Source: Minisyncoccota bacterium
Lineage (GTDB): Bacteria > Patescibacteriota > Minisyncoccia > Phycocordibacterales > JAACPR01
DNA length: 36,018 nt
Assembly: GCA_018061745.1 (NCBI GenBank)
Contig: JAGOTN010000001.1
Coordinates: forward strand, 1 to 36,018
Reading direction: 5' to 3'
Shown here: positions 1,604 through 15,532 of the stretch, piece by piece
Numbering within the stretch: the stretch's first letter is position 1
How the letters are laid out: every line of letters begins with the position of its first letter
The notes under the pieces: model-generated
Told to the model about the DNA's origin: nothing
Databases searched by the model: none
The model's input: the letters and a program-made list of their open reading frames with translations, nothing else
Position numbers and translations under genes: made by a program

Positions 1604-1780
1604 ATGAGAATCATTCGTTATATAAAAGAAACAAAAGCAGAGCTTAGTCATGTGACTTGGCCATCAAGAAATCAAACTATTATTTATACAAGTTTGATTA
1701 TTGTTATTTCACTTTTTGTATCTGCATATCTTGGAGTTTTTGATGCTTTATTTACAAGCTTCGTTAAGTTATTTGTTTAA
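1604..1780 (+). CDS. secE: Preprotein translocase subunit SecE (58 aa)
   Basis: The product is MRIIRYIKETKAELSHVTWPSRNQTIIYTSLIIVISLFVSAYLG..., a basic N-terminus followed by one TM helix. It sits immediately upstream of nusG, the canonical secE-nusG-rplK order. The longer ORF from 1436 spans a terminator and a promoter. Confidence 0.85.
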   Translation: MRIIRYIKETKAELSHVTWPSRNQTIIYTSLIIVISLFVSAYLGVFDALFTSFVKLFV

Positions 1781-1793
1781 TCAATAAATTATT

Positions 1794-2339
1794 ATGGCAA
1801 AACAACAACCTACAAGAGACCGAAACTGGTACGCAATCCATACTTATGCTGGATACGAAAACGCTGTTCTTAAAAATTTAAAACAAAGAACTGAATCATT
1901 GGGAATGGAAGAAAAGATTTTCAATGTGATAGTTCCTACTGAAAAGAAAATTAAAATCAAAGCAGGAAAGAGGGTAGAAGTAGAAGAAAAAATTTATCCT
2001 GGATATGTTTTGGTAGATATGATCGTAACGGATGATTCTTGGTTTGTGGTTCGAAATACTCCTCGTGTTACAGGTTTCGTTGGTTCAGGAGTTTATCCTG
2101 TTCCTTTGGATCAAAAAGAAGTTGATGAATTGTTTGGTAGAATGCAAAAAGATACTGCAAAACATTCAATCAATTTAGAAGTTGATGACATGATTATGGT
2201 CATTGATGGACCTTTTAAAGAGTTAGAAGGGAAGATTGAAGAGGTTGATGAAGAACGAGGAAAAATTAAAGTTCTTGTATCAATGTTTGGTCGGGAAACT
2301 CCTGTGGAATTAGACTTCTTGCAGGTTCGTAAAATTTAA
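1794..2339 (+). CDS. nusG: Transcription termination/antitermination factor NusG
   Basis: The NGN domain begins [14 protein letters not shown], and a C-terminal KOW region reads [38 protein letters not shown]. The gene lies between secE and rplK. Confidence 0.95.
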
Positions 2340-2357
2340 GCTAATCTCTATAAACCT

Positions 2358-2780
2358 ATGGCTAAGAAAATAATGAAATTAATGAAGCTTCAAGTACCGG
2401 CAGGGAAAGCTGTTCCTGCGCCGCCACTTGGGCCTTCTTTAGGACAAGCTGGTATTAATATCAGTGAATTTATTAACAGATTCAATGCAGACACACAATC
2501 TCGAATGGGAGAAATCGTTCCGACTGTTGTAACTGTATATGAAGACCGAAGTTTTGATTTGGTTTACAAAAAGCCACCAGCAAGTTTTCTTGTTATGAGA
2601 GCAGCTGGACTTAAGGGTGGTTCTGGAAACAACACAACAAAGAAAGTTGGATCTATTACACAAGATCAACTGCGACAAATTGCAGAAGAGAAAATGGAAG
2701 ATCTAAGTGCGAATGATGTGGAAGCTGCGATGAAGATTATTGCGGGGTCTGCGCGTTCAATGGGTGTTGAAATAAAATAA
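2358..2780 (+). CDS. rplK: 50S ribosomal protein L11
   Basis: KLQVPAGKAVPAPPLGPSLGQAGINI is the L11 signature N-terminal domain. The length is 140 aa. Confidence 0.95.
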   Translation: MAKKIMKLMKLQVPAGKAVPAPPLGPSLGQAGINISEFINRFNADTQSRMGEIVPTVVTVYEDRSFDLVYKKPPASFLVMRAAGLKGGSGNNTTKKVGSITQDQLRQIAEEKMEDLSANDVEAAMKIIAGSARSMGVEIK

Positions 2781-2789
2781 AGTAAATAA

Positions 2790-2881
2790 ATAAAAACTCC
2801 AAAAAATTATTCTTCGCGTCAACGGCTTCGGCCGTAGGCCTGCAGATGTTTCCTTAAAGAATAATTTTTTGGAGTTTTTAT
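2790..2881 (+). repeat. Palindromic hairpin element, copy B: 25-bp perfect stem, 42-nt conserved core (terminator-like, downstream of rplK)
   Basis: 2790-2814 is the exact reverse complement of 2857-2881. The core 2815-2856 is cgcgTCAACGGCTTCGGCCGTAGGCCTGCAGATGTTTCctta. A T-rich tract follows. Confidence 0.85.
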
Positions 2882-2913
2882 GTTTTCAACATTATTTTTA
2901 TTTCAGTAGATGT

Positions 2914-2944
2914 TTTAAAAGAAAAATCCGCGGGTTAGGCGGAT
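2914..2944 (-). terminator. Intrinsic terminator ending the minus-strand thyA-folA-dcd-ORF97 operon
   Basis: The stem atccgc/gcggat (2926-2931 / 2939-2944) is followed on the minus strand by TTTTCTTTT. The stop codon of the 97-aa ORF lies in the loop. Confidence 0.6.
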
Positions 2945-3228
2945 ATTAGATTTTGATAACGAACAAAGGTTTCGTACAAGCGAGAAATTTTTTTGAAACA
3001 AAAAATTTCCCGTTCACGTGTCTTTGTTGTTTGTGTGATTGTGAAAATGTTTTCCGAACGATCTTGAAGTGATTTTTTTAATAGAGGCACATCAATGCCG
3101 AATCCCTCTTCTTCTAGTCGTTCAATACATTTGTTGCAGAAGTCTTTATACTCCCAAATTTCTCTAGAGAGTTCTCGTAGAAGCACTGAAAGGCACTTCT
3201 TGAGTTCTTTATTAATGATCGATTCCAT
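2935..3228 (-). CDS. Hypothetical 97-aa protein, last gene of the thyA-folA-dcd operon
   Basis: The ORF lies 38 nt downstream of dcd on the same strand, before the only visible terminator. It looks helical and charged and carries CxxC (CNKC). Confidence 0.5.
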   Translation of the reverse strand: MESIINKELKKCLSVLLRELSREIWEYKDFCNKCIERLEEEGFGIDVPLLKKSLQDRSENIFTITQTTKTREREIFCFKKISRLYETFVRYQNLISA

Positions 3229-3266
3229 TTGTTGTGCATTCTACTCACAAACAACCTTTTTGCAAA

Positions 3267-3917
3267 TTAAGCCTTATGGTCTCTTTTTAATTCGGGGATT
3301 TTTCCTTCTCGCACTAAGTCAGATTCAGTTCTATCCTTTTCAGCATTTTTGAAATTTTGTTTTATAAAACCTTCGATAATATCTTTTTGATGATAGCGAC
3401 TTTCTTTTATTTCAGCTTTTTCATCTAGTTTTTCAAAAACAACTTGGCAGAATCTTTCTCCAGGATAAAGTTTAATTACTTGAGATTCTGTATTGTTTCG
3501 AATTGGAATTGCTAGTTGGCCCTTGTAACCAGAATCAACAATACCTGTCAGGTCTACTGAAAGTCCTTTTCTATTTGTAGATGAACGAGGGTAGAGAATT
3601 GCCATTAGATCATCTGGGATCCCAACTGTTTCAAGGGTAGAAGCTAAAACATATTCACCTGGAAGTAGGTCGAAAGTTTGAGATTTTTCTAATTCAATAA
3701 TATCGAAATAATCTGGACGGTCTTCACTTAGGTGATCAATGTTTAAAGCCACGCGACCTTTTTCTGTGAGTTGCCATCTTTTTGGTAAAAGAAAAGTGTA
3801 ACCAAGTCTTAAATCTATTGCGTGTGCTTGAATTTGAAATTCATCAAGGTTTGGTTCAAATAAAATTTCTCCAGCATTTATTTTTTCTAGTATTTGTTTT
3901 TTAGTTAAGATAGACAT
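3267..3917 (-). CDS. dcd: dCTP deaminase family protein
   Basis: The N-terminus MSILTKKQILEKINAGEILFEPNLDEFQIQAHAIDLRLG is typical of Dcd. A dUTPase-like beta fold is suggested by SVDLTGIVDSGYKGQLAIPIRN. At 216 aa it is slightly long. Confidence 0.85.
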   Translation of the reverse strand: MSILTKKQILEKINAGEILFEPNLDEFQIQAHAIDLRLGYTFLLPKRWQLTEKGRVALNIDHLSEDRPDYFDIIELEKSQTFDLLPGEYVLASTLETVGIPDDLMAILYPRSSTNRKGLSVDLTGIVDSGYKGQLAIPIRNNTESQVIKLYPGERFCQVVFEKLDEKAEIKESRYHQKDIIEGFIKQNFKNAEKDRTESDLVREGKIPELKRDHKA

Positions 3918-3918
3918 T

Positions 3919-4416
3919 TTATTTTTGAACTCGATAATTTAATAATATCGTACTTGGAGATAAGTTTGTACTTGATATTAATTCTAGTTTTTGTCCTAAT
4001 TTCTGTGGCAAAAAGGGAACTCCTTCACCAAACTCAATATCTTCTTCTGTCAGGAATACTTCGTCTACTAGGTTTTTTTCCATAAACAGTTTATATATTT
4101 CAGCCCCTCCGCAAATAGCTATTTCTTGTTCACCTTCTGATTGAAGTCTTTTGATTAGTTCTTCTGGAGATTCATTTGTTGTTTCAACACCCTCAATGTG
4201 TAAATTTTGTCGACTCATAATAATGTTTCGTCTTTCTTTTAAAGGTTTCCCAAACGTTTCAAAAGTTTTTCTTCCCATGACAACAACGCCAGCTTCTTTT
4301 GTTTTTTCTACAAAAAATTTCTTATCCTCAGCACTAGTCCAATTCATAGAATTTTGTTCGGCGGATTTTGCAATGAAACCATCTTTTGATACAGCTGCAA
4401 TGATAAAAACTTTCAT
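3919..4416 (-). CDS. folA: Dihydrofolate reductase
   Basis: The pattern IIAAVSKDGFI...MNWTSAEDKKFF...VVVMGRKTFETFGKPLKERRNIIMS...ICGGAEIY fits DHFR. It starts 4 nt after the thyA-like stop. Confidence 0.85.
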   Translation of the reverse strand: MKVFIIAAVSKDGFIAKSAEQNSMNWTSAEDKKFFVEKTKEAGVVVMGRKTFETFGKPLKERRNIIMSRQNLHIEGVETTNESPEELIKRLQSEGEQEIAICGGAEIYKLFMEKNLVDEVFLTEEDIEFGEGVPFLPQKLGQKLELISSTNLSPSTILLNYRVQK

Positions 4417-4420
4417 AAAA

Positions 4421-5257
4421 TTAAAGCGCTATTTTTAAACCTTTAATGGCAGGCATTGGTTCGTATTGTTTTTGTATTTGAGAAACAATTTCTTCGAGAA
4501 GGGATTCATCTTTTTGTTCTGATCTTTCGAAAGAATTTTCTGGAAGAGTTAGTGTGATTGGTTTGTGATTATTTGTTCTGGAAATAAGTTCTCGAGCTGC
4601 TTCATAATGATTTTCATAAATGTGTGCGTTTGAAATTGAGTGAGAGTATGTTCCAACTTTCACCCCAAGTCTTTGCGCCAAAACATATTGCAAGAAACAA
4701 AAACCAGCGATATCAAAAGGCGCTCCCAGAATCATATCGTTTGAGCGAACTATATTATGCATGTGAAGTTTTCCGGCAATAATATTTATTGTGAAAGTGT
4801 ATGGGCAGGGAACATTGGCTTTTTTCTTTAATGAAAGTCCGTCTTGTGCAGGATCCCATGCGATCACAACTCCGTGTCGTGAGCTAGGTTCTTTTTCTAA
4901 AAGTTCTACTAAAAGTTTTATTTGATCTCGTCCGAAATGTTTTCGCCAACGATATCCGTACGCAACTGTTACGACATCATTTGGATTTGTGAAAGAATCC
5001 CAAATTTTTGTGTGGTTTCTCAAAAAGTCTGCAGGTTTTCGTGCACCAGATAAAAACCACATTTGTTCAACAATTGGACCAGTAACAGGAATTTTTCTAA
5101 GTGTTAAAAGTGGAAAACCATCTTCTTCAGGATTGATTTTAAAATGTAATCCCGGAATCGCAGATGTTTCAAGACCAGTTCTTTCTGAGAATTCTTTGTA
5201 GCCGTTTTCAAGAATGTCTTTTATTAGGCCTTGGTAGATTTGATCAAATTTTGTCAT
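4421..5257 (-). CDS. thyA: Thymidylate-synthase-family (ThyA-like) pyrimidine nucleotide C5-methylase with an atypical active site (PCP, PFD)
   Basis: ThyA blocks present: ERTG, DGFPLLTLRK, EQMWFLSG, YGYRWR, DQIKLL, catalytic Cys in VPCP (codon 4805-4807), RSND, AHIYENH, and the TS-like C-terminal tail YEPMPAIKGLKIAL. The invariant Asn in LGxPFNIA is Asp here (LGAPFDIAGF, codon 4712-4714). Confidence 0.85.
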   Translation of the reverse strand: MTKFDQIYQGLIKDILENGYKEFSERTGLETSAIPGLHFKINPEEDGFPLLTLRKIPVTGPIVEQMWFLSGARKPADFLRNHTKIWDSFTNPNDVVTVAYGYRWRKHFGRDQIKLLVELLEKEPSSRHGVVIAWDPAQDGLSLKKKANVPCPYTFTINIIAGKLHMHNIVRSNDMILGAPFDIAGFCFLQYVLAQRLGVKVGTYSHSISNAHIYENHYEAARELISRTNNHKPITLTLPENSFERSEQKDESLLEEIVSQIQKQYEPMPAIKGLKIAL

Positions 5258-5318
5258 ATCAGTATTTACATTATAATGGTTAGAATATAATCTGCATTAT
5301 AGACACTTTAAGATATTT

Positions 5319-5828
5319 ATGGAAAAGAAAGAAATCAAATACCCATATTTGCCAGGAGGCAGGGAAATCAAATACGTTTCGGCGGATAATCCGTTTATGG
5401 TTGAAGCCAAAAAAGTTCAACAAACCATGTCTACAGATAAGTATTTCTCAACAGGGGCTGTTGTTGTGAAAGACGGAGTGATTGTTGGAAAGGGTGCTAA
5501 CCAATCTCTTTTGCGTACAAAATGGATGATTGAAGCTCACAAAAAATGGGCTTGTATTCGAAGATGGTTCAATATCCCTTCTGGTCAGAAGTATTGGATG
5601 TGTCCTGGATGTTCTCCTTCTAGTCAGCATGCTGAAACTCGTGCTGCAATAGACGCCGAGAAGAAAGGTTTGTCTAAAGACGCTGACATGTATCTTTATG
5701 GTCACTGGTGGTGTTGTGCTCCTTGTTGGGATGCTGTGATTCATGCGGGAATTAAAGATGTGTATCTTCTCGAGGGAAGTGAGATTCTTTTTGATAAAAA
5801 TCATCCAGACAATATTGTTGGTAAATAA
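5319..5828 (+). CDS. comEB: Deoxycytidylate (dCMP) deaminase, ComEB family
   Basis: The zinc motifs HAE (SQHAETRAAI) and PCxxC (CAPCWDAV) are present, together with the extra Cys cluster (CPGC) typical of dCMP deaminases. It is transcribed divergently from the thyA-like gene. Confidence 0.8.
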   Translation: MEKKEIKYPYLPGGREIKYVSADNPFMVEAKKVQQTMSTDKYFSTGAVVVKDGVIVGKGANQSLLRTKWMIEAHKKWACIRRWFNIPSGQKYWMCPGCSPSSQHAETRAAIDAEKKGLSKDADMYLYGHWWCCAPCWDAVIHAGIKDVYLLEGSEILFDKNHPDNIVGK

Positions 5829-5946: not shown

Positions 5947-6546
5947 TCAGGAGCTTCTTTTACTATACTCAGGATCCATTTTAAATTTCCAGTCTGGAAG
6001 TTTGGATTTTGCTTTAGCGTGATCGAAGTAGACTTCGTAGCCTGACTCCTCACATAATTTGTGTAGTAGATCAAACTTCTTAAACAAGTCGTACAAGTAA
6101 CGCAATTTTTCTTGCTCCAATGCAATCAGTCCGGGTTTTGATGGTTTGTAGGTTTGTGTCCAAAGACAGATTTCAGCAGCCTTCACTAGGCTATGAAATG
6201 CATACTCTTTGAATTTATCGAGTGTGGTGATGGTTTTAATTTTAGCACCCATTATTTCGAAGAGCTTGTAAGAATCTCTTTTGAAATCCCAGATAATTAA
6301 CATCATATAGACTATTAGTATTAGTCCTGACACGGAAATGAATCCCAAGATGAGACATGTAACTAACATCAGTACTTCGTATTGGCGCAAGAACGCATAT
6401 ACGAAGACGATAACGATTGCCGGAACGATTGTTTTTAGGAGGTTTGGAAAGATTGCTTTCTTTGCTCTTATTAAACGACCTGCGTGCCAACTTTGTAACA
6501 GGCAGACATTAGTCGTGCCCTCCAATAACATGTTTAATACTGTCAT
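5947..6546 (-). CDS. Hypothetical membrane protein (199 aa, two predicted TM helices plus a soluble C-terminal domain)
   Basis: The hydrophobic stretches are IVPAIVIVFVYAFL and LMLVTCLILGFISVSGLILIVYMMLII. An AAAGG ribosome-binding-like motif lies upstream. The overlapping ORFs in this interval are shadows. Confidence 0.55.
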   Translation of the reverse strand: MTVLNMLLEGTTNVCLLQSWHAGRLIRAKKAIFPNLLKTIVPAIVIVFVYAFLRQYEVLMLVTCLILGFISVSGLILIVYMMLIIWDFKRDSYKLFEIMGAKIKTITTLDKFKEYAFHSLVKAAEICLWTQTYKPSKPGLIALEQEKLRYLYDLFKKFDLLHKLCEESGYEVYFDHAKAKSKLPDWKFKMDPEYSKRSS

Positions 6547-6711: not shown

Positions 6712-6745
6712 TTAAAAGCCGCGGACTTTGTCCGCGGCTTATTTG
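6712..6745 (-). terminator. Intrinsic terminator (GC-rich 11-bp stem) after the 64-aa ORF
   Basis: aagccgcggac (6716-6726) pairs with gtccgcggctt (6730-6740) around loop ttt. A T-run follows on the minus strand. Confidence 0.7.
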
Positions 6746-7032: not shown

Positions 7033-8205
7033 ATGAAAGATATTGAAATTGCAGATTTAATAAAGAAAGAAAACGAGAGACAAAAGAGTGTAATAAATTT
7101 AATTGCTTCAGAAAATTATGTTTCAGAGGATGTTCTAGAAGCACTTGGTTCAAAATTTAATAACAAATATGCAGAAGGATATCCGAATGCTAGATACTAC
7201 GGTGGAAATGAAGTTGTAGATGAAGTTGAATTACTAACACAAAGTCGTGCACTAAAAACTTTTGGATTAAATGAAAATGATTGGGCTGTGAATGTGCAAG
7301 CGCTTTCTGGTTCACCTGCAAACTTGGCAGTTTATTTTGCACTTGTTTCAAAAGGAGGAAAAATTATGGGAATGCGATTGGATCACGGAGGACATTTAAC
7401 TCACGGACACAAAGTTTCTGCGACAGGGGGTTTTTATGAATCAATTCAATACGGAGTTGATAAAGAAACTGAACTTTTAAATTTTGAAGAAATAGAAAAA
7501 ATTGCAGTTGAAGCGAAGCCTGAAATTATTGTTGCGGGATTTACCGCTTATCCAAGAATGATTGATTGGAAAAAGTTTAGAGCTATTGCAGATAAAGTTG
7601 GTGCTTATTTAATGGTGGATATGTCTCATATTTCAGGACTTGTTGCTGGAGGAGTTTATGAATCTCCGTTTCCTTATGCAGACATTGTCACAACAACAAC
7701 TCACAAAACTTTACGAGGTCCTCGAAGTGCTTTAATTTTTGCAAAAAAAGATGACAGAAAATTGAACGAAAAAATAAACAAAGCAGTTTTTCCAGGTCTT
7801 CAAGGTGGTCCGCATATGAATCAAATTGCGGGAGTCGCGGTTGCTTTAAAAGAAGCGAGTACAGATGAGTTTAAAAAATATGCAGAGCAAGTTGTGAAGA
7901 ATGCAAAAACACTTGCAGATACTTTGAGTGAATTGGGTTGGAGAATTGTTTCTGGTGGGACTGATTCACATTTAATTTTAGTTGATACTTGGATGGATGG
8001 AAAAGGAATTTCTGGAAAAGAAGCGAGTGATCGATTAGAGAAAGAGGGAATTATTGTGAACAAGAATACAATCCCAAATGACACTCGAAGTCCTTCTGAT
8101 CCATCTGGAATTCGACTTGGAACTCCTGCTGAAACTACAAACGGAAAAAACGAAAAAGATTTTGAAGAAATTGCAAAACGAATTGATGAGATTTTGCGAA
8201 AATAA
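7033..8205 (+). CDS. glyA: Serine hydroxymethyltransferase
   Basis: The blocks LIASENYVS, YAEGYPNARYYGG and SGSPANLAVY are present, along with the PLP-lysine block TTTTHKTLRGPR. Confidence 0.95.
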   Translation: MKDIEIADLIKKENERQKSVINLIASENYVSEDVLEALGSKFNNKYAEGYPNARYYGGNEVVDEVELLTQSRALKTFGLNENDWAVNVQALSGSPANLAVYFALVSKGGKIMGMRLDHGGHLTHGHKVSATGGFYESIQYGVDKETELLNFEEIEKIAVEAKPEIIVAGFTAYPRMIDWKKFRAIADKVGAYLMVDMSHISGLVAGGVYESPFPYADIVTTTTHKTLRGPRSALIFAKKDDRKLNEKINKAVFPGLQGGPHMNQIAGVAVALKEASTDEFKKYAEQVVKNAKTLADTLSELGWRIVSGGTDSHLILVDTWMDGKGISGKEASDRLEKEGIIVNKNTIPNDTRSPSDPSGIRLGTPAETTNGKNEKDFEEIAKRIDEILRK

Positions 8206-8207
8206 AT

Positions 8208-8630
8208 ATGCAAATTAAATTCAAAAAATTAAATGAAAATGCGATTGCTCCAAAATACGCATACAAATTTGATGCGGGCATGGATTTATTTTGTTTAGAA
8301 GATGTTTCAATTGCACCAAATGAAAGAGTTCAGATTTCAACTGGAATTGCTATGGAAATCCCAGAAAAATATGTAGGTTTGATTTGGGATAAAAGTGGTT
8401 TGTCTCATAAGTCAGGATTGAAAACTGTTGGCGGTGTTGTAGATTCCCAGTATCGTGGAGAAATAAAAGTTGGAATGATAAATTTGAGTGGTGATGTTTT
8501 TAAATTTGAAGCGGGACAAAAAATCGCACAAATGTTAATTCAAAAAGTAAAACAAATTGATTTAATAGAATCTGCCGAGCTTTCAGACACCGACCGCGGG
8601 GAAGGGGGGTTTGGAAGCACTGGAAAATAA
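8208..8630 (+). CDS. dut: dUTP diphosphatase (dUTPase)
   Basis: AGMDL, VVDSQYRGEI and the C-terminal RGEGGFGSTG motif are present. The length is 140 aa. Confidence 0.95.
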   Translation: MQIKFKKLNENAIAPKYAYKFDAGMDLFCLEDVSIAPNERVQISTGIAMEIPEKYVGLIWDKSGLSHKSGLKTVGGVVDSQYRGEIKVGMINLSGDVFKFEAGQKIAQMLIQKVKQIDLIESAELSDTDRGEGGFGSTGK

Positions 8631-8639
8631 ATTTAAAAA

Positions 8640-9335
8640 ATGGAAACAAAAAATAAAAGAGGAAAATTTATTGTGATAGATGGAACCGATGGTTCAGGAA
8701 AAGGTACGCAAACAGAATTACTGGTTGCTGCACTTAAAGATCAGGGAGTTAAAGTTGTTGTTACTGATTTTCCTCAATACGGAAAACCTTCTGCTATTTT
8801 TGTTGAAAAATATTTAAGAGGTGAATATGGAAGCGCGGATGAAGTTGGTGCAAAAAGAGCTTCGCTTTTTTATGCTCTGGATAGATTTGATGAATCTAAA
8901 CAGATGAAACAATGGTTGGATGAAGGATTTTGTATTGTGAGTAATAGGTATGTTTCTGCAAATATGGGACATCAGACTGGAAAAATAAAAGATCCAGTTG
9001 AACGAGATAAATTTTTAGATTGGCTGAATGAATTGGAATTTGAAATTTTTGAAATTCCAAAACCAGATGAAGTTATTTTTCTATATGTTCCACCTGAAGT
9101 TGGGCAAAAACTTGTTGATGAAAAATCTGCTAGAGAATATACAAAAGGCGCAAAAAGAGACATTCACGAGGCTGATTTGAATCATTTAAAAAATGCATCA
9201 GAAGCATATAAATATGTTGCAGAGAAATTTAATTGGAAAACAGTGATCTGTGCTCCAAATGGTGAGATGATGAGTAGAGAGGAGATTCATAAAATTATTT
9301 TAGAAATCTCAAAAAAGATAATTGAAATAAATTAG
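8640..9335 (+). CDS. tmk: Thymidylate (dTMP) kinase, eukaryote/archaeal-like type
   Basis: The P-loop is FIVIDGTDGSGKGTQ, followed by DFPQYGKPSA...YLRG and SNRYVSANMGHQ. Confidence 0.85.
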   Translation: METKNKRGKFIVIDGTDGSGKGTQTELLVAALKDQGVKVVVTDFPQYGKPSAIFVEKYLRGEYGSADEVGAKRASLFYALDRFDESKQMKQWLDEGFCIVSNRYVSANMGHQTGKIKDPVERDKFLDWLNELEFEIFEIPKPDEVIFLYVPPEVGQKLVDEKSAREYTKGAKRDIHEADLNHLKNASEAYKYVAEKFNWKTVICAPNGEMMSREEIHKIILEISKKIIEIN

Positions 9336-12004: not shown

Positions 12005-12033
12005 TTGAAACAAAGCCCTAAATATCGTATGCT
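12005..12033 (+). promoter_or_regulatory. Candidate promoter of ileS (leaderless geometry)
   Basis: TTGAAA (12005-12010), a 17-nt spacer, then TATGCT (12028-12033). ATG 12041 lies 7 nt after the -10. Confidence 0.45.
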
Positions 12034-12040
12034 GTATTTT

Positions 12041-15000
12041 ATGACAAATGAAGCAGGGGAAGACAATAAGAGTCAAGTTGCTTTGAAAGAAGAGCAAATA
12101 TTAGACTTTTGGAATCAAAATAAAATTTTCGAGAAATCTGTTGAAAGAGAGACTAAAAAAGGTGATTTCCTTTTTTATGATGGGCCACCATTTGCAACAG
12201 GACTTCCTCATTATGGGCACATTCTTGCTGGAACAATAAAAGACATAATTCCTCGTTATAAAACTATGAATGGACATAGAGTTGTTCGTCGATGGGGTTG
12301 GGATACTCACGGGCTTCCAATTGAAAACTTAATTCAAAAAGAAAATAATCTTAAAACAAAACATGATGTAGAAAAATTTGGAATTAAAAATTTCAATGAA
12401 GCTGCACGAGCAAATGTTTTTCGTTATCTAGATGAATGGAAAAAAATAATTCCACGAACTGGGCGTTGGGTAGATTTTGAAGACAATTACATAACAATGG
12501 ATTCAAAATATATGCAGTCTGTTTGGTGGATGTGGAAGACTTTATATAAAAAAGGTTTAGCCTATGAAGGATTCAAGACGATGCACATTTCTCCTTTGCT
12601 TGAGACAGCGCTTTCAAACTTTGAAGTAAATCAAGCATATAAAGATATTACTGATATTTCTGCAACAGTTAAATTTGAACTAGTAGATGAAAAGGGAACT
12701 TTTGTTTTGGCTTGGACAACAACTCCTTGGACGCTTCCTGGAAACGTTGCTTTAGCGATAAATAAAAATGTTGAATATGTAAAAGTAAAATTTGAGGAAT
12801 CATTTTATATTGTTGCAAAAGATTTAGCTGAAAAAGTTTTTGGAGAAAAAGAACATCAAATTATTTCTGAAGTTTCTACTGAAGAATTAGTGGGGAAGAA
12901 ATACACTCCTCCTTTTGATTATTATGTTAATGATACTAATTTAGAAAATCGTGAAAACGGTTGGAAAATTTATAATGGAGATTTTGTTACAACAGAAGAT
13001 GGAACTGGAGTTGTTCATATTGCTCCAGCTTTTGGTGAAGACGATTTAAATTTGGGTAAAGAAAATAATTTACCTTTTGTTCAACATGTAAAAATTGACG
13101 GAACAATCAAACCAGAAGCAAAAGATTTTGCAGGTCTTCAAGCAAAACCAAAAGAAGATCCAACTCAAACCGATGTTGAATTTATTAAAGCACTCGCACA
13201 CAAAGGACTTCTTTTTGATAAGAAAAAATATACTCACTCATATCCACATTGTTGGAGAACGGACGCACCACTTTTGAATTACGCGATGTCTTCTTGGTAT
13301 ATAAAAGTTACAGACATTAAAGATAAAATTGTTAAAGAAAATGAAAAAGTAAATTGGGTTCCTGATTTTGTTGGAAGTAATCGTTTTGGTAATTGGTTGA
13401 AAGATGCAAAAGACTGGTCTGTTTCTCGTGCTCGATATTGGGGAACTCCTATTCCAATTTGGAAATCTGAAGACGAAACAGAAATCGCCGTAATCGAATC
13501 AATTTCAGAATTGAGAGAAAAAACAAAAAGCTCAAATACTTTTGTAATAATGCGTCATGGTGAAGCCGATCATAATCTAGAAAACAGAATTTCTGATAGT
13601 AATAATTCTCCAAGTCATTTAACTCAAAGAGGAAAAGATGATGTGGCTCGGGTAGGGGAGAAATTTGCAGATGAAAAATTTGATGCAATTTATTGTTCTC
13701 CACTTTTTAGAACAAAAGAAACTGCAGAAATTGTTGCAGAGAAAATTGGTTTTCCAAAAGAAAATATTATTGAAGATGAAAGATTGAGAGAGGTTCAGAC
13801 TGGTTTTGATGGTCGTCCAATTACAGATTACAGAAGTTATTTTTCATCAAATTCTGAAAAATATGATAAAGCCGCGCCAACAGGTGAGAGTCTTTTGGAT
13901 TTGAAAAAAAGAGCTGGAAATTTTTTGAAAGAAATTGATTCTCAGAATGAAGGAAAAAGAATTTTAGTTATTACACATGAATACACAACATGGTTGATGT
14001 TCTCTGCGAACGAAGGTTTTGATAAAAAAGAAACCATCGAAATAAAAGAAGATAAAGAAGAATTTATCGAGACAGGAAAAACTTTGGAAATAATTCCAAG
14101 CAGACTTCCTGTAAATGATAATTTTGAAATTGATTTACACCGACCATATATCGATGATGTGACTTTTGTTCAAAACGGAAAAATAATGAAAAGAATCCCA
14201 GATGTTTTTGATGGATGGATTGATTCTGGTTCAGTTCCTTTTGCTTCAAATTTTTATCCTGCAAACAAAGAAAGATTTAATCCTGAATCTGGTTTGTTTA
14301 AAAAAACAATAAACTACCCAGCTGACTTTATTGCTGAAGGTTTGGATCAAACTCGAGGATGGTTTTATTCTTTAATTGTTTTGAACACAGCTTTATTTGG
14401 GCATACACCATATAAAAACGTAATAGTTAATGGGCTTGTTTTAGCCGAAGACGGAAGAAAGATGTCTAAAAGTTTAAATAATTATCCAGACATCAATATT
14501 ATTTTTGATAAATATGGTGCGGATGCAATGAGATATTTCTTGGTATCTTCACAAGCTGTAAAATCAGAAGATTTATTATTTTCAGAAAAAGGAGTTGATG
14601 AAGTTTCTAAAAAACTAATTGCCAGACTAAACAATGTTGTTTCATTTTATGAAATGTACAAAGGTGTTTTAGGAGATGTGTCTGTAAAAGAAAGTTCAAA
14701 TGTTTTGGACAAATGGATTCTTGCCAGACTTTCTGAATTGGAAAAACAAATTACCAAATCGCTCGATGCTTATGAGATTGATAAAGCCTCGAGACCTATC
14801 ATGGATTTTGTTGATGATTTATCAACTTGGTATATTCGTCGTTCTCGAGATCGCTTCAAAAACGAGGAAGATGAAGATGCGAAATCTGCAGCAGCAACAA
14901 CAAAATTTGTTTTGAAAAACTTGGCAAAATTGATGGCGCCATTCACTCCGTTTATCGCTGAAGATATTTATCTAAAAGTTCGAGACGAAAATGAATCGGA

Positions 15001-15532
15001 AAGTGTACACCTAGAATCATGGCCGAACCTAAAAAATCTAGATGAAAAAATTATTTCTGAAATGCAAACACTTCGAGAAACAGTAACTCGAGCTCTTGAA
15101 GAGAGAACAAAGGTTGGAATTAAAGTTCGACAACCGCTTGCTTCTGTAACAATTAAAAAACAAGAATTAAAAAGCAAAAATGATTTGTTGGATATTTTGA
15201 AAGACGAATTAAATGTTAAAGAGGTTATGTTTTCTGAAACTCAAGAAGTTGAAATTGTTTTAGATACAAAAATAACTGAAGAATTAAGACTAGAAGGGAA
15301 TGCTCGAGAATTAATTCGTTTTATTCAACAACTTCGAAAAACTTCGGGATTGCAACCAAGTGACGAAATAAAAGCCACCGTTTCAAAGTCTGCAGAAGTT
15401 GAAGTTGGAAGTTTTGTAGATGAAATTAAAAAATCAGTTCGAGCTACACAATTTGCTTTTGAAGAAAACGACGGAGAGTCTTTGCAGATCGGTGAAGTTT
15501 CAATAAATGTAAAAATCAAAAAGATTTCATAA
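12041..15532 (+). CDS. ileS: Isoleucyl-tRNA synthetase (type 2 / eukaryote-like) with an inserted histidine-phosphatase domain
   Basis: Class I HIGH (GLPHYGHIL), the CP1 editing region (TTTPWTLPGN), WSVSRARYWGTPIPIW, KMSKS (GRKMSKSLNNYPD) and the anticodon-binding region are all present. The start is taken at ATG 12041 (MTNEAG...) rather than the track's TTG at 12005, which coincides with the -35 box. Confidence 0.92.
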   Translation: MTNEAGEDNKSQVALKEEQILDFWNQNKIFEKSVERETKKGDFLFYDGPPFATGLPHYGHILAGTIKDIIPRYKTMNGHRVVRRWGWDTHGLPIENLIQKENNLKTKHDVEKFGIKNFNEAARANVFRYLDEWKKIIPRTGRWVDFEDNYITMDSKYMQSVWWMWKTLYKKGLAYEGFKTMHISPLLETALSNFEVNQAYKDITDISATVKFELVDEKGTFVLAWTTTPWTLPGNVALAINKNVEYVKVKFEESFYIVAKDLAEKVFGEKEHQIISEVSTEELVGKKYTPPFDYYVNDTNLENRENGWKIYNGDFVTTEDGTGVVHIAPAFGEDDLNLGKENNLPFVQHVKIDGTIKPEAKDFAGLQAKPKEDPTQTDVEFIKALAHKGLLFDKKKYTHSYPHCWRTDAPLLNYAMSSWYIKVTDIKDKIVKENEKVNWVPDFVGSNRFGNWLKDAKDWSVSRARYWGTPIPIWKSEDETEIAVIESISELREKTKSSNTFVIMRHGEADHNLENRISDSNNSPSHLTQRGKDDVARVGEKFADEKFDAIYCSPLFRTKETAEIVAEKIGFPKENIIEDERLREVQTGFDGRPITDYRSYFSSNSEKYDKAAPTGESLLDLKKRAGNFLKEIDSQNEGKRILVITHEYTTWLMFSANEGFDKKETIEIKEDKEEFIETGKTLEIIPSRLPVNDNFEIDLHRPYIDDVTFVQNGKIMKRIPDVFDGWIDSGSVPFASNFYPANKERFNPESGLFKKTINYPADFIAEGLDQTRGWFYSLIVLNTALFGHTPYKNVIVNGLVLAEDGRKMSKSLNNYPDINIIFDKYGADAMRYFLVSSQAVKSEDLLFSEKGVDEVSKKLIARLNNVVSFYEMYKGVLGDVSVKESSNVLDKWILARLSELEKQITKSLDAYEIDKASRPIMDFVDDLSTWYIRRSRDRFKNEEDEDAKSAAATTKFVLKNLAKLMAPFTPFIAEDIYLKVRDENESESVHLESWPNLKNLDEKIISEMQTLRETVTRALEERTKVGIKVRQPLASVTIKKQELKSKNDLLDILKDELNVKEVMFSETQEVEIVLDTKITEELRLEGNARELIRFIQQLRKTSGLQPSDEIKATVSKSAEVEVGSFVDEIKKSVRATQFAFEENDGESLQIGEVSINVKIKKIS
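13532..14110 (+). other. Histidine phosphatase (phosphoglycerate-mutase-like, RHG) domain inserted in-frame within ileS
   Basis: The motifs are FVIMRHGEADHN (catalytic RHG, Arg codon 13553-13555), LTQRGKDD, YCSPLFRTKETA, ERLREVQTGFDGRP and ILVITHEY (second His). It lies between the IleRS blocks GTPIPIW...ISELREK and DLHRPYIDD (D at 14132). Confidence 0.8.

Follow-up and report, generated by a model that had tools for sequence, protein, structure and literature searches.

A thymidylate synthase homolog of Paceibacteria related to phage deoxycytidylate C5-methyltransferases: a probable methylate-then-deaminate route to thymidylate

A 36,018-nucleotide stretch of DNA from a Minisyncoccota bacterium (GenBank assembly GCA_018061745.1, contig JAGOTN010000001.1, positions 1 to 36,018; here called the window) encodes on its minus strand, at 4421..5257, a member of the thymidylate synthase (TS) family of 278 residues with an ATG start. 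The protein has aspartate (Asp182) at the site where a deoxyuridylate (dUMP)-specific TS has the asparagine that sets pyrimidine specificity, and it is predicted to be a deoxycytidylate (dCMP) C5-methyltransferase. From the sequence features observed and how far they are conserved, from the linkage of the genes and from the relationship to phage enzymes, we consider it probable that an enzyme of the type found in Xanthomonas phage Xp12 acts as the housekeeping 'thyA' of Paceibacteria, a class of the candidate phyla radiation (CPR), and that in these bacteria methylation comes first and deamination second. A natural dCMP methylase, as well as the idea of methylating before deaminating, is known from phages. 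What is new here is a phage-type module that appears to serve the housekeeping thymidylate synthesis of a bacterial class, together with a DCD-like partner that lacks the catalytic glutamate and a deaminase of a different lineage. Our searches of the literature on CPR or Patescibacteria and thymidylate synthesis brought up neither an Asp-type thyA in CPR or another cellular lineage nor a methylate-then-deaminate route in a cell.

Specificity residues of the TS homolog and their conservation

The product was matched by Pfam family PF00303 over residues 7-250 (E=1.5e-55) and by phrog_160 (E=4.8e-68). Its AlphaFold model had a predicted local distance difference test (pLDDT) score of 82 and a predicted template modelling (pTM) score of 0.85, and the top Foldseek matches were all TS, with template modelling (TM) scores of 0.72-0.78 (about 0.75). 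The two low-confidence segments of the model, 86-107 and 135-149, are the regions whose length is unlike that of canonical TS. PHROGs was also considered as a means of telling methylase, hydroxymethylase and TS apart and proved uninformative, as T4 gp42, the Xp12 TS and the window TS are all assigned to phrog_160, 'thymidylate synthase'. In E. coli numbering, the signature of the window TS reads R21, E58, Y94, R126, H127, C146, P147, R166, S167, N168, D169, F176, D177, H207 and Y209. The catalytic cysteine (C151) and the phosphate-binding arginines R26 (=R21), R127 (=R126) and R171 (=R166) are all present, and W80, Y94 and E58 are retained in the alignment. Like the E. coli ThyA-FolA system, that of the window has the TS fold, the catalytic Cys, R21, E58, Y94, R126, R166, S167, D169, H207 and Y209, a closing tail, a thyA-folA operon and serine hydroxymethyltransferase (SHMT). 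The window TS differs from E. coli ThyA in the changes Asn177 to Asp, His147 to Pro and Arg127 to His, in a shortened 95-110 loop and in a DGLSLKKK segment inserted before the catalytic Cys. Its C-terminal tail YEPMPAIKGLKIAL (4424..4465, minus strand), which pairs with E. coli YDPHPGIKAPVAI and ends in a hydrophobic residue, is of the TS closing type; the ending (I)xxL(K/R)IA(L/I/V) is kept throughout the clade, and T4 gp42 has no such tail.

The first-pass annotation of the window had described the replacement of the invariant Asn by Asp (PFN to PFD) and the change of PCH to PCP, and the reading frame, motifs and coordinates it gave all lie where it placed them, the codons of Cys151 and Asp182 exactly. 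Asp182 (GAT, 4712..4714, minus strand) corresponds to E. coli Asn177 and L. casei Asn229, the pyrimidine-specificity residue, and Pro152 (CCA, 4802-4804), next to Cys151 (TGC, 4805-4807; the pair at 4802..4807, minus strand), stands in place of the canonical TS His147. In HMMER alignments to the TS structures 3ix6, 6auj and 4h0r, 'apfdiagf' is opposite 'vpfniasy' and 'vpcpy' is opposite 'ppch/apch', and the same register was obtained when three Xp12-type enzymes, E. coli ThyA and T4 gp42 were aligned with the window TS by MAFFT; in that alignment gp42 was also seen to carry both RSND and Asp, as had been claimed. A misaligned Asp was excluded, as the register is the same in the Pfam match, in all three pairwise HMMER alignments and in two made with MAFFT. 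The register being correct, Asp truly occupies the N177 position, and the profile alignment puts no other residue there.

Two residues of a dUMP-specific ThyA (EC 2.1.1.45), Asn177 and the His147 of PCH, are replaced in the window TS by Asp182 and Pro152. Among the curated ThyA equivalogs the outcome was divided, the protein scoring above the cutoff of TIGR03284 (140.4 vs 108.35) and far below those of the four PRK01827 equivalogs (NF002497, 160 vs 327; NF002496, 140 vs 325; NF002499, 131 vs 405; NF002495, 131 vs 327). Asn-to-Asp mutants of TS, in which one change gives a dCMP methylase, provide a mechanistic precedent (cited in PMC8670742). Unlike those mutants, which are point mutants in a His147 background, the window TS belongs to a natural, long-diverged clade with co-varying changes.

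The Asp-type TS is a lineage trait of the CPR class and not a one-off. The 120 closest homologs, all of them Patescibacteria/Paceibacteria proteins from metagenome-assembled genomes (MAGs), invariably have Asp at the Asn177 position and RSND, and 115 of the 120 have PCP, a conservation by which chance or sequencing error was excluded. The closest homologs are 67-94% identical to the window TS and come from MAGs labelled Paceibacterota, Parcubacteria, Kaiser-, Adler-, Taylor-, Nomura-, Campbell-, Colwell- and Liptonbacteria; many further homologs were binned as generic 'Saccharibacteria' by one submitter. Relatives are encoded in at least 235 GTDB species-representative genomes, a lower bound because query-specific peptides were used in the GTDB scan. 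When 1.84 billion cluster representatives were searched exhaustively with HMMER and the 150 best matches taken, the 55 best were all Asp-type and the first Asn-type match appeared at E=1.2e-39. When these 150 were aligned with references and five close CPR homologs (~160 sequences), the residues at 147/177 were Pro/Asp in 99 cases, His/Asn in 30, His/Asp in two and Cys/Asn in one, and in another 23 Asp was paired with Val, Ile, Leu, Gln, Cys, Trp or Thr. Asp177 is clade-defining and is coupled to the loss of His147.

A phylogeny, which the first-pass annotation had proposed, placed the window TS apart from the Asn-type enzymes. Neighbour-joining (NJ) trees were made from 70 sequences (31 Asn-type and 39 chosen Asp-type) with columns 147 and 177 removed and with 100 bootstraps. 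The Asn-type sequences were split from the chosen Asp-type subset in 99/100 bootstraps, the CPR clade was recovered in 100/100 and the Xp12-type group in 82/100, with weak support (36/100) for joining the CPR clade to its nearest viral relatives; the tree is star-like at depth, and these first three groupings are the only ones supported. In the full NJ tree, three Pro/Asp sequences (P0202, P0222 and P0248) and one His/Asp sequence (P0242), all outside the bootstrap set, nest inside the canonical His/Asn clade, which suggests independent Asn-to-Asp switches beyond the main Asp-type radiation.

Phage relatives, neighbouring genes and the proposed order of reactions

A tblastn search against 50,697 phage genomes gave the best E-values for the Bradleyvirinae siphoviruses Janthinobacterium phage Donnerlittchen and Xanthomonas phages Mallos, Elanor and DoCa10, whose TS share 58-66% identity with that of Xp12. 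In pairwise BLASTP the window TS had 33% identity to Xp12-type enzymes (161-169 bits), 30.5% to E. coli ThyA (123 bits) and 23% over 210 residues to T4 gp42 (39 bits). NVPCP and PxD are common to the window TS, Xp12, Mallos and Donnerlittchen, and RSxD..PxD to the window TS and the Bradleyvirinae phage TS. Apart from Asp177 and Pro147 (NVPCP), the likeness to the Xp12/PaMx74 type of Bradleyvirinae includes three features absent in E. coli, namely the shortened loop AYGYRWRxHFGRDQ, the insertion AWDPAxDG...K.NVPCP and the motif AH(I/L)YE(N/S)H (AHxYExH). Judged by sequence similarity, the closest characterised relatives are the Xp12-type phage enzymes, and the window TS falls in a sister clade outside the Xp12 clade, from which it differs by a longer, E. 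coli-like tail and by His or Gln in place of Arg127.

The TS positions 147 and 177 were previously found to be the ones most strongly tied to cytosine-modified phage contigs (PMC8670742). In recent work by Yang et al. (bioRxiv 10.1101/2024.12.05.627091), 5-methyldeoxycytidine (5mdC) was made in vivo by the Xp12 TS and by 5/7 related metagenomic TS, and adjacency of a deaminase and a TS gene was reported for 70% of modified vs 6% of unmodified phage contigs. The same study reported that cis-linked phage enzymes of the dCMP-deaminase family favour 5-methylcytosine (5mC) and that 5mC-selective deaminases are polyphyletic. As these phage deaminases were proposed to turn 5-methyl-dC nucleotides into dT nucleotides, it was suggested that a dUMP-dependent TS is unneeded, a proposal that was backed by older Xp12 isotope work.

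Fusions and neighbours of other Asp-type TS genes were also recorded. P0136 is a natural dCMP-deaminase::TS fusion with Leu147/Asp177, and P0169 is a fusion of a MazG-like PRA-PH domain to a Pro/Asp TS. The nearest non-CPR relatives, P0126 and P0128, lie on phage-like contigs beside dUTPase/DCD and deaminase genes. In P0158 the Asp-type TS is joined to an HNH endonuclease domain, which could have arisen by insertion of an intein or homing element, or by a fusion made in gene calling. P0123 (loci L091 1024-2575 and L092 330-1881) is an Asp-type TS with Gln147 and with RAED, not RSxD; it overlaps an upstream gene for a nucleotide hydrolase of the HIT/DcpS_C family, and such a hydrolase may be another route to the monophosphate substrate.

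In the window, a dihydrofolate reductase (DHFR) gene (3919..4416, minus strand; PF00186, E=6.4e-26) lies 4 nt (AAAA) downstream of the TS gene and is followed by the gene of a 216-residue DCD-like protein (3267..3917, minus strand; PF22769, E=3.5e-35; TIGR02274). A 169-residue zinc deaminase that belongs to the dCMP/cytidine deaminase family (5319..5828, plus strand; PF00383, E=4.6e-13) is transcribed divergently from the TS operon, across an intergenic region of 61 bp (5258..5318); both gaps are as the first-pass annotation had given them. In a survey of 80 species loci with flanks of up to 10 kb on each side, the divergent, adjacent deaminase was present in 79, the DCD-like gene in 78, DHFR beside TS in 71 and SHMT within the flank in 65. 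Like this cluster, the TS region of Xp12-type phages combines a candidate nucleoside triphosphate (NTP) pyrophosphatase, a zinc deaminase and DHFR, the gene order in Xp12, Mallos and Donnerlittchen being pyrophosphohydrolase - TS(Asp) - dCMP deaminase - DHFR. In contrast to the phages, the pyrophosphatase candidate of the window has the DCD fold and is not a MazG/HAD protein, the deaminase is unrelated beyond its fold, and SHMT, dUTPase and thymidylate kinase (Tmk) are added to the cluster.

The DCD-like protein is annotated 'dCTP deaminase' in public sources, and its TIGR02274 score (119.3 bits) is above the cutoff (92.8). In E. coli Dcd, Glu138 is the general acid/base of deoxycytidine triphosphate (dCTP) deamination (cf. 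the E138A/D entries 1xs4, 2j4h and 2v9x). At this position the DCD-like protein has Pro138 (CCA, 3504-3506), reading 'LAIPIRN' vs 'ITLEL', and 'laipirn' lies under 'itlelfn' / 'itlelsn' in the alignments to 4xjc and 2qlp; E. coli Dcd and Dut were aligned as well. The DCD fold, RSSxxR (RSSTNR here, with the equivalents of Ser111 and Arg115) and the motif III Asp are shared with E. coli Dcd and with the Dcd-Dut enzymes of M. jannaschii and M. tuberculosis. Of the 79 CPR orthologs recovered, 77 have the form xPxxNN, and no such motif could be located in the remaining two. A Pro variant with 44% identity stands beside the fusion P0136 (L089 8001-9302) on a viral-looking contig. Because Pro replaces Glu138, the DCD-like protein is unlikely to deaminate. 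Deamination is not expected of the CPR subfamily, in which Glu138 is Pro wherever the motif was found, and a supply of dUTP or dUMP by this means is therefore unlikely. Given the loss of Glu and the presence of a canonical dUTPase in the cluster, the simplest role is the pyrophosphatase half of the Dcd-Dut reaction, acting on dCTP; this half-reaction alone seems plausible from the sequence. The protein is most plausibly a non-deaminating (d)NTP pyrophosphatase that would convert dCTP to dCMP and pyrophosphate (PPi), and the group is probably a mis-annotated pyrophosphatase subfamily, which we infer to be a functional analogue of the phage MazG/HAD gene and of T4 gp56. Dictyostelium Dcd2 has been reported to nest among CPR Dcd sequences (MBE 2023), a report that does not state the residue at the Glu position and is neutral here.

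The deaminase has the motifs HAE (5628-5636) and CCAPC (5712-5726) and an extra CPGC knuckle (5601-5612). Within its clade HAE104 and C133-x2-C136 are invariant, and the extra C...CPGC zinc-knuckle-like insertion is conserved. Its model (pLDDT 85) had its best structural match in the T4 dCMP deaminase 1vq2 (TM 0.50), and its score against the ComEB equivalog was 32.7 vs a cutoff of 219. The allosteric dCTP/dTTP motif, defined as G(Y/W)N(A/G) (PMC12088426), reads GANQ at residues 59-62 (5493-5504; consensus G-A-N-Q/G). It has been noted that dCMP deaminases in general accept 5-methyl-dCMP (PMC12088426), and the window deaminase is predicted to convert a 5-methyl-dC nucleotide to a dT nucleotide.

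We propose the following order of reactions. The DCD-like protein would hydrolyse dCTP to dCMP and PPi. Cys151 of the TS homolog would then attack C6 of dCMP while Asp182 reads and protonates the N3/N4 edge of the cytosine, and the methylene group of methylenetetrahydrofolate (CH2-THF) would be transferred and reduced to give 5-methyl-dCMP and dihydrofolate (DHF), a step modelled on the homologous phage enzymes that have been assayed and on the N177D/N229D mutants. The zinc deaminase would next take 5-methyl-dCMP to thymidylate (dTMP), or 5-methyl-dCTP to dTTP. The folate cycle would be closed by DHFR and by SHMT (7033..8205, plus strand; PF00464, E=1.6e-164), which regenerates CH2-THF, and dTMP would pass on through Tmk (8640..9335, plus strand; PF02223, E=7.5e-18). 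That deamination has been moved from before to after methylation is suggested by the agreement of three conserved, co-located features: the Asn to Asp and His to Pro changes of the TS, the Glu to Pro change of the Dcd-like protein, and the divergent zinc deaminase fixed to the TS gene. The logic is that proposed for the Xp12 type, dCMP to 5mdCMP and then deamination to a dT nucleotide, with the difference that in the window the purpose is presumably dTMP supply and not the replacement of C in DNA.

The first-pass annotation had argued that the enzyme acts on dCMP and not on dUMP, that it is a methylase and not a hydroxymethylase, and that one conceivable outcome is a route from dCMP through m5dCMP to dTMP by the neighbouring deaminase. 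Use of dCMP gains support, at the level of sequence, from the register of the Asp, its status as a clade trait and the Xp12-type relatives, and the outcome named is the pathway now proposed for Xp12-like phages. Methylation is preferred over hydroxymethylation because of the closing tail, Y94, E58, W80, the DHFR linkage and the distance from gp42. T4 likewise has an enzyme with the specificity Asp and RSND, gp42, and, in gp56, a dCTPase feeding a cytosine-directed TS homolog, together with the dCMP deaminase Cd; unlike the window cluster, T4 has a separate Asn-type TS, Td, for dTMP.

If the proposal is correct, a major bacterial lineage makes thymidine without dUMP, by way of dCTP, dCMP, 5-methyl-dCMP and dTMP, a reaction order so far proposed for Xp12-like phages only, and cells would have, besides ThyA and ThyX, a third way of making thymidylate. 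A core metabolic step of CPR bacteria would then use a module that is otherwise mainly viral, with transfer possible in either direction. Thousands of 'thymidylate synthase' and 'dCTP deaminase' annotations would have to be corrected and CPR metabolic reconstructions revised, and the predicted sensitivity to drugs of the 5-fluorouracil or 5-fluoro-dUMP (FdUMP) type would change. The clade would also be a large and diverse source of candidate 5mC-acting deaminases, which are wanted for direct methylome sequencing.

Alternative routes and products

Several points weigh against the methylate-then-deaminate route. Specificity rests on one or two residues and on ~33% identity to assayed enzymes. 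The TIGR03284 (NCBIfam ThyA equivalog) score of the window TS, 140.4, is above the cutoff of 108.35. The cluster has a canonical dUTPase, whose product dUMP would lead nowhere should the TS be unable to accept it, and the textbook route, in which dUTPase or dCMP deaminase gives dUMP for TS, fits the identical gene names. The pyrophosphatase activity and the substrate of the DCD-like protein are guesses. The CPR deaminase had no significant similarity to Xp12-type deaminases in BLASTP, a result that is in line with the polyphyly reported for 5mC-selective deaminases yet no positive evidence, and its sequence holds no proof of a 5mC preference; in view of this and of the GANQ motif, its substrate cannot be read from the sequence. 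The phage deaminase mSCD-B5 uses the triphosphate and not the monophosphate (10.1101/2024.12.05.627091). With regard to a housekeeping role, no second PF00303-like ORF was found within the flanks (up to 10 kb on each side) of 82 loci, and six RHR..S regular-expression matches for thyX in the same flanks look spurious.

The enzyme might accordingly be an ordinary dUMP-specific or bispecific TS despite its Asp, with other substitutions of the clade compensating, in a classical route from dCMP through dUMP to dTMP. We regard this as unlikely, yet it deserves serious weight, as the gene names (dCMP deaminase, dUTPase, TS, DHFR, SHMT and Tmk) are those of the textbook pathway, the TIGR03284 cutoff is exceeded, the methyl-transfer residues and the C-terminal tail are all kept, and thyA is handled as an ordinary TS in papers on CPR. 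Engineered Asn-to-Asp mutants of TS are also said to retain some activity on dUMP, reportedly in work of Liu and Santi in 1992 and of Hardy and Nalivaika in the same year. Against an ordinary TS, the natural Asp-type enzymes assayed so far, T4 gp42, the Xp12 TS and five metagenomic TS, are all cytosine-directed, and MilA is a further natural Asp-type enzyme that acts on cytosine nucleotides. The coupling of Asp to the loss of His147 is a signature of phage cytosine modification, the clade is placed in a radiation of Asp-type sequences, most of them viral, and apart from canonical ThyA, deaminase::TS(Asp) fusions and the near-universal adjacency of the two genes are typical of cytosine-directed systems, and a DCD-like partner without the deaminase Glu would be unexpected were the supply of dUMP the goal. 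A different product is envisaged if the dCMP methylase feeds 5-methyl-dCTP into replication, so that bulk 5mC replaces C partly or fully as in Xp12, with dCTP being drawn down by the DCD-like protein as a dCTPase and part of the pool being diverted to dT by the deaminase. Pyrophosphatase, TS(Asp), deaminase and DHFR also make up the gene set of Xp12-like phages, in which every C is a 5mC; a dCTPase role is conceivable for a DCD-like protein that does not deaminate, and short-read sequencing is blind to the substitution of 5mC for C. No direct evidence speaks for such a replacement, which would have to be tolerated by the replication, repair, transcription and restriction systems of the cell; 5mC mutates to T on deamination, a change that Ung does not remove, and a cluster that combines Tmk, dUTPase, DHFR and SHMT points to dTMP supply as its purpose. 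We know of no report of anomalous base-calling for long-read CPR genomes, and we hold bulk replacement to be very improbable. The same low standing is given to the variant in which Paceibacteria make thymidylate by the proposed route while the replisome draws on some or all of their 5-methyl-dC, a DCD-like dCTPase tilting the pool and chromosomal 5mC appearing in all contexts; were it true, bulk base substitution in the manner of phages would be seen for the first time in a cellular organism. The least probable reading, for which we see hardly any room, takes the enzyme for a hydroxymethylase of dCMP or dUMP, akin to those of T4 (gp42) and SPO1, that would make 5-hydroxymethyl-dCMP for the hypermodification of DNA or for a small molecule. 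Asp177 and RSND are held in common with gp42, but the identity to that enzyme is 23% vs 33% for the Xp12 methylases. The TS closing tail is kept in the window TS and absent in gp42, which makes hydroxymethyl-dCMP without DHF. A hydroxymethylase leaves the folate unoxidised and hence has no need of DHFR, a gene that is tightly linked here (71/80 loci), and no glucosyltransferase or other tailoring genes were seen nearby in the loci examined.

Genomic setting and minor observations

The window has a GC content of 32-38% and encodes NusG, ribosomal protein L11, arginyl-tRNA synthetase (ArgRS), isoleucyl-tRNA synthetase (IleRS) and FtsK. Synteny with rplK (L11) was seen in 51 of the 80 species loci, and a phage or mobile-element origin of the window was excluded by these genes and by this synteny. 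Unlike its Xp12-type counterparts, the TS gene of the window belongs to a cell and is syntenic with nusG, rplK and aminoacyl-tRNA synthetase genes across a bacterial class.

Beyond SHMT lies the gene for the canonical trimeric dUTPase of 140 residues (8208..8630, plus strand; PF00692, E=1.8e-31), with motif V reading GEGGFGSTG, and the dUTPase-Tmk arrangement recurs in a related Paceibacteria contig (L090). The locus of one relative additionally has FolD and both subunits of ribonucleotide reductase. Between the deaminase and SHMT genes the window has a hydrophobic ORF of 199 residues (5947-6546, minus strand) with no Pfam match; a homolog was found in one of the 80 loci, which marks it as a variable insert within an otherwise fixed cluster. 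A promoter-like TTTCCA-18-TATAAT (5325-5296) faces the TS gene, as a consensus match only. In the AT-rich spacer upstream of SHMT there is a perfect 11-bp GC-rich hairpin, AAGCCGCGGAC...GTCCGCGGCTT (6716-6740), that scores as terminator-like on either strand.

The IleRS of the window (12005-15532, plus strand; 1175 residues) has a PF00300 histidine-phosphatase domain (E=5.6e-32) at residues ~514-676, inside its class-I catalytic domain, and an IleRS with an inserted PF00300 domain is likewise encoded in L090, at 1760-5254.

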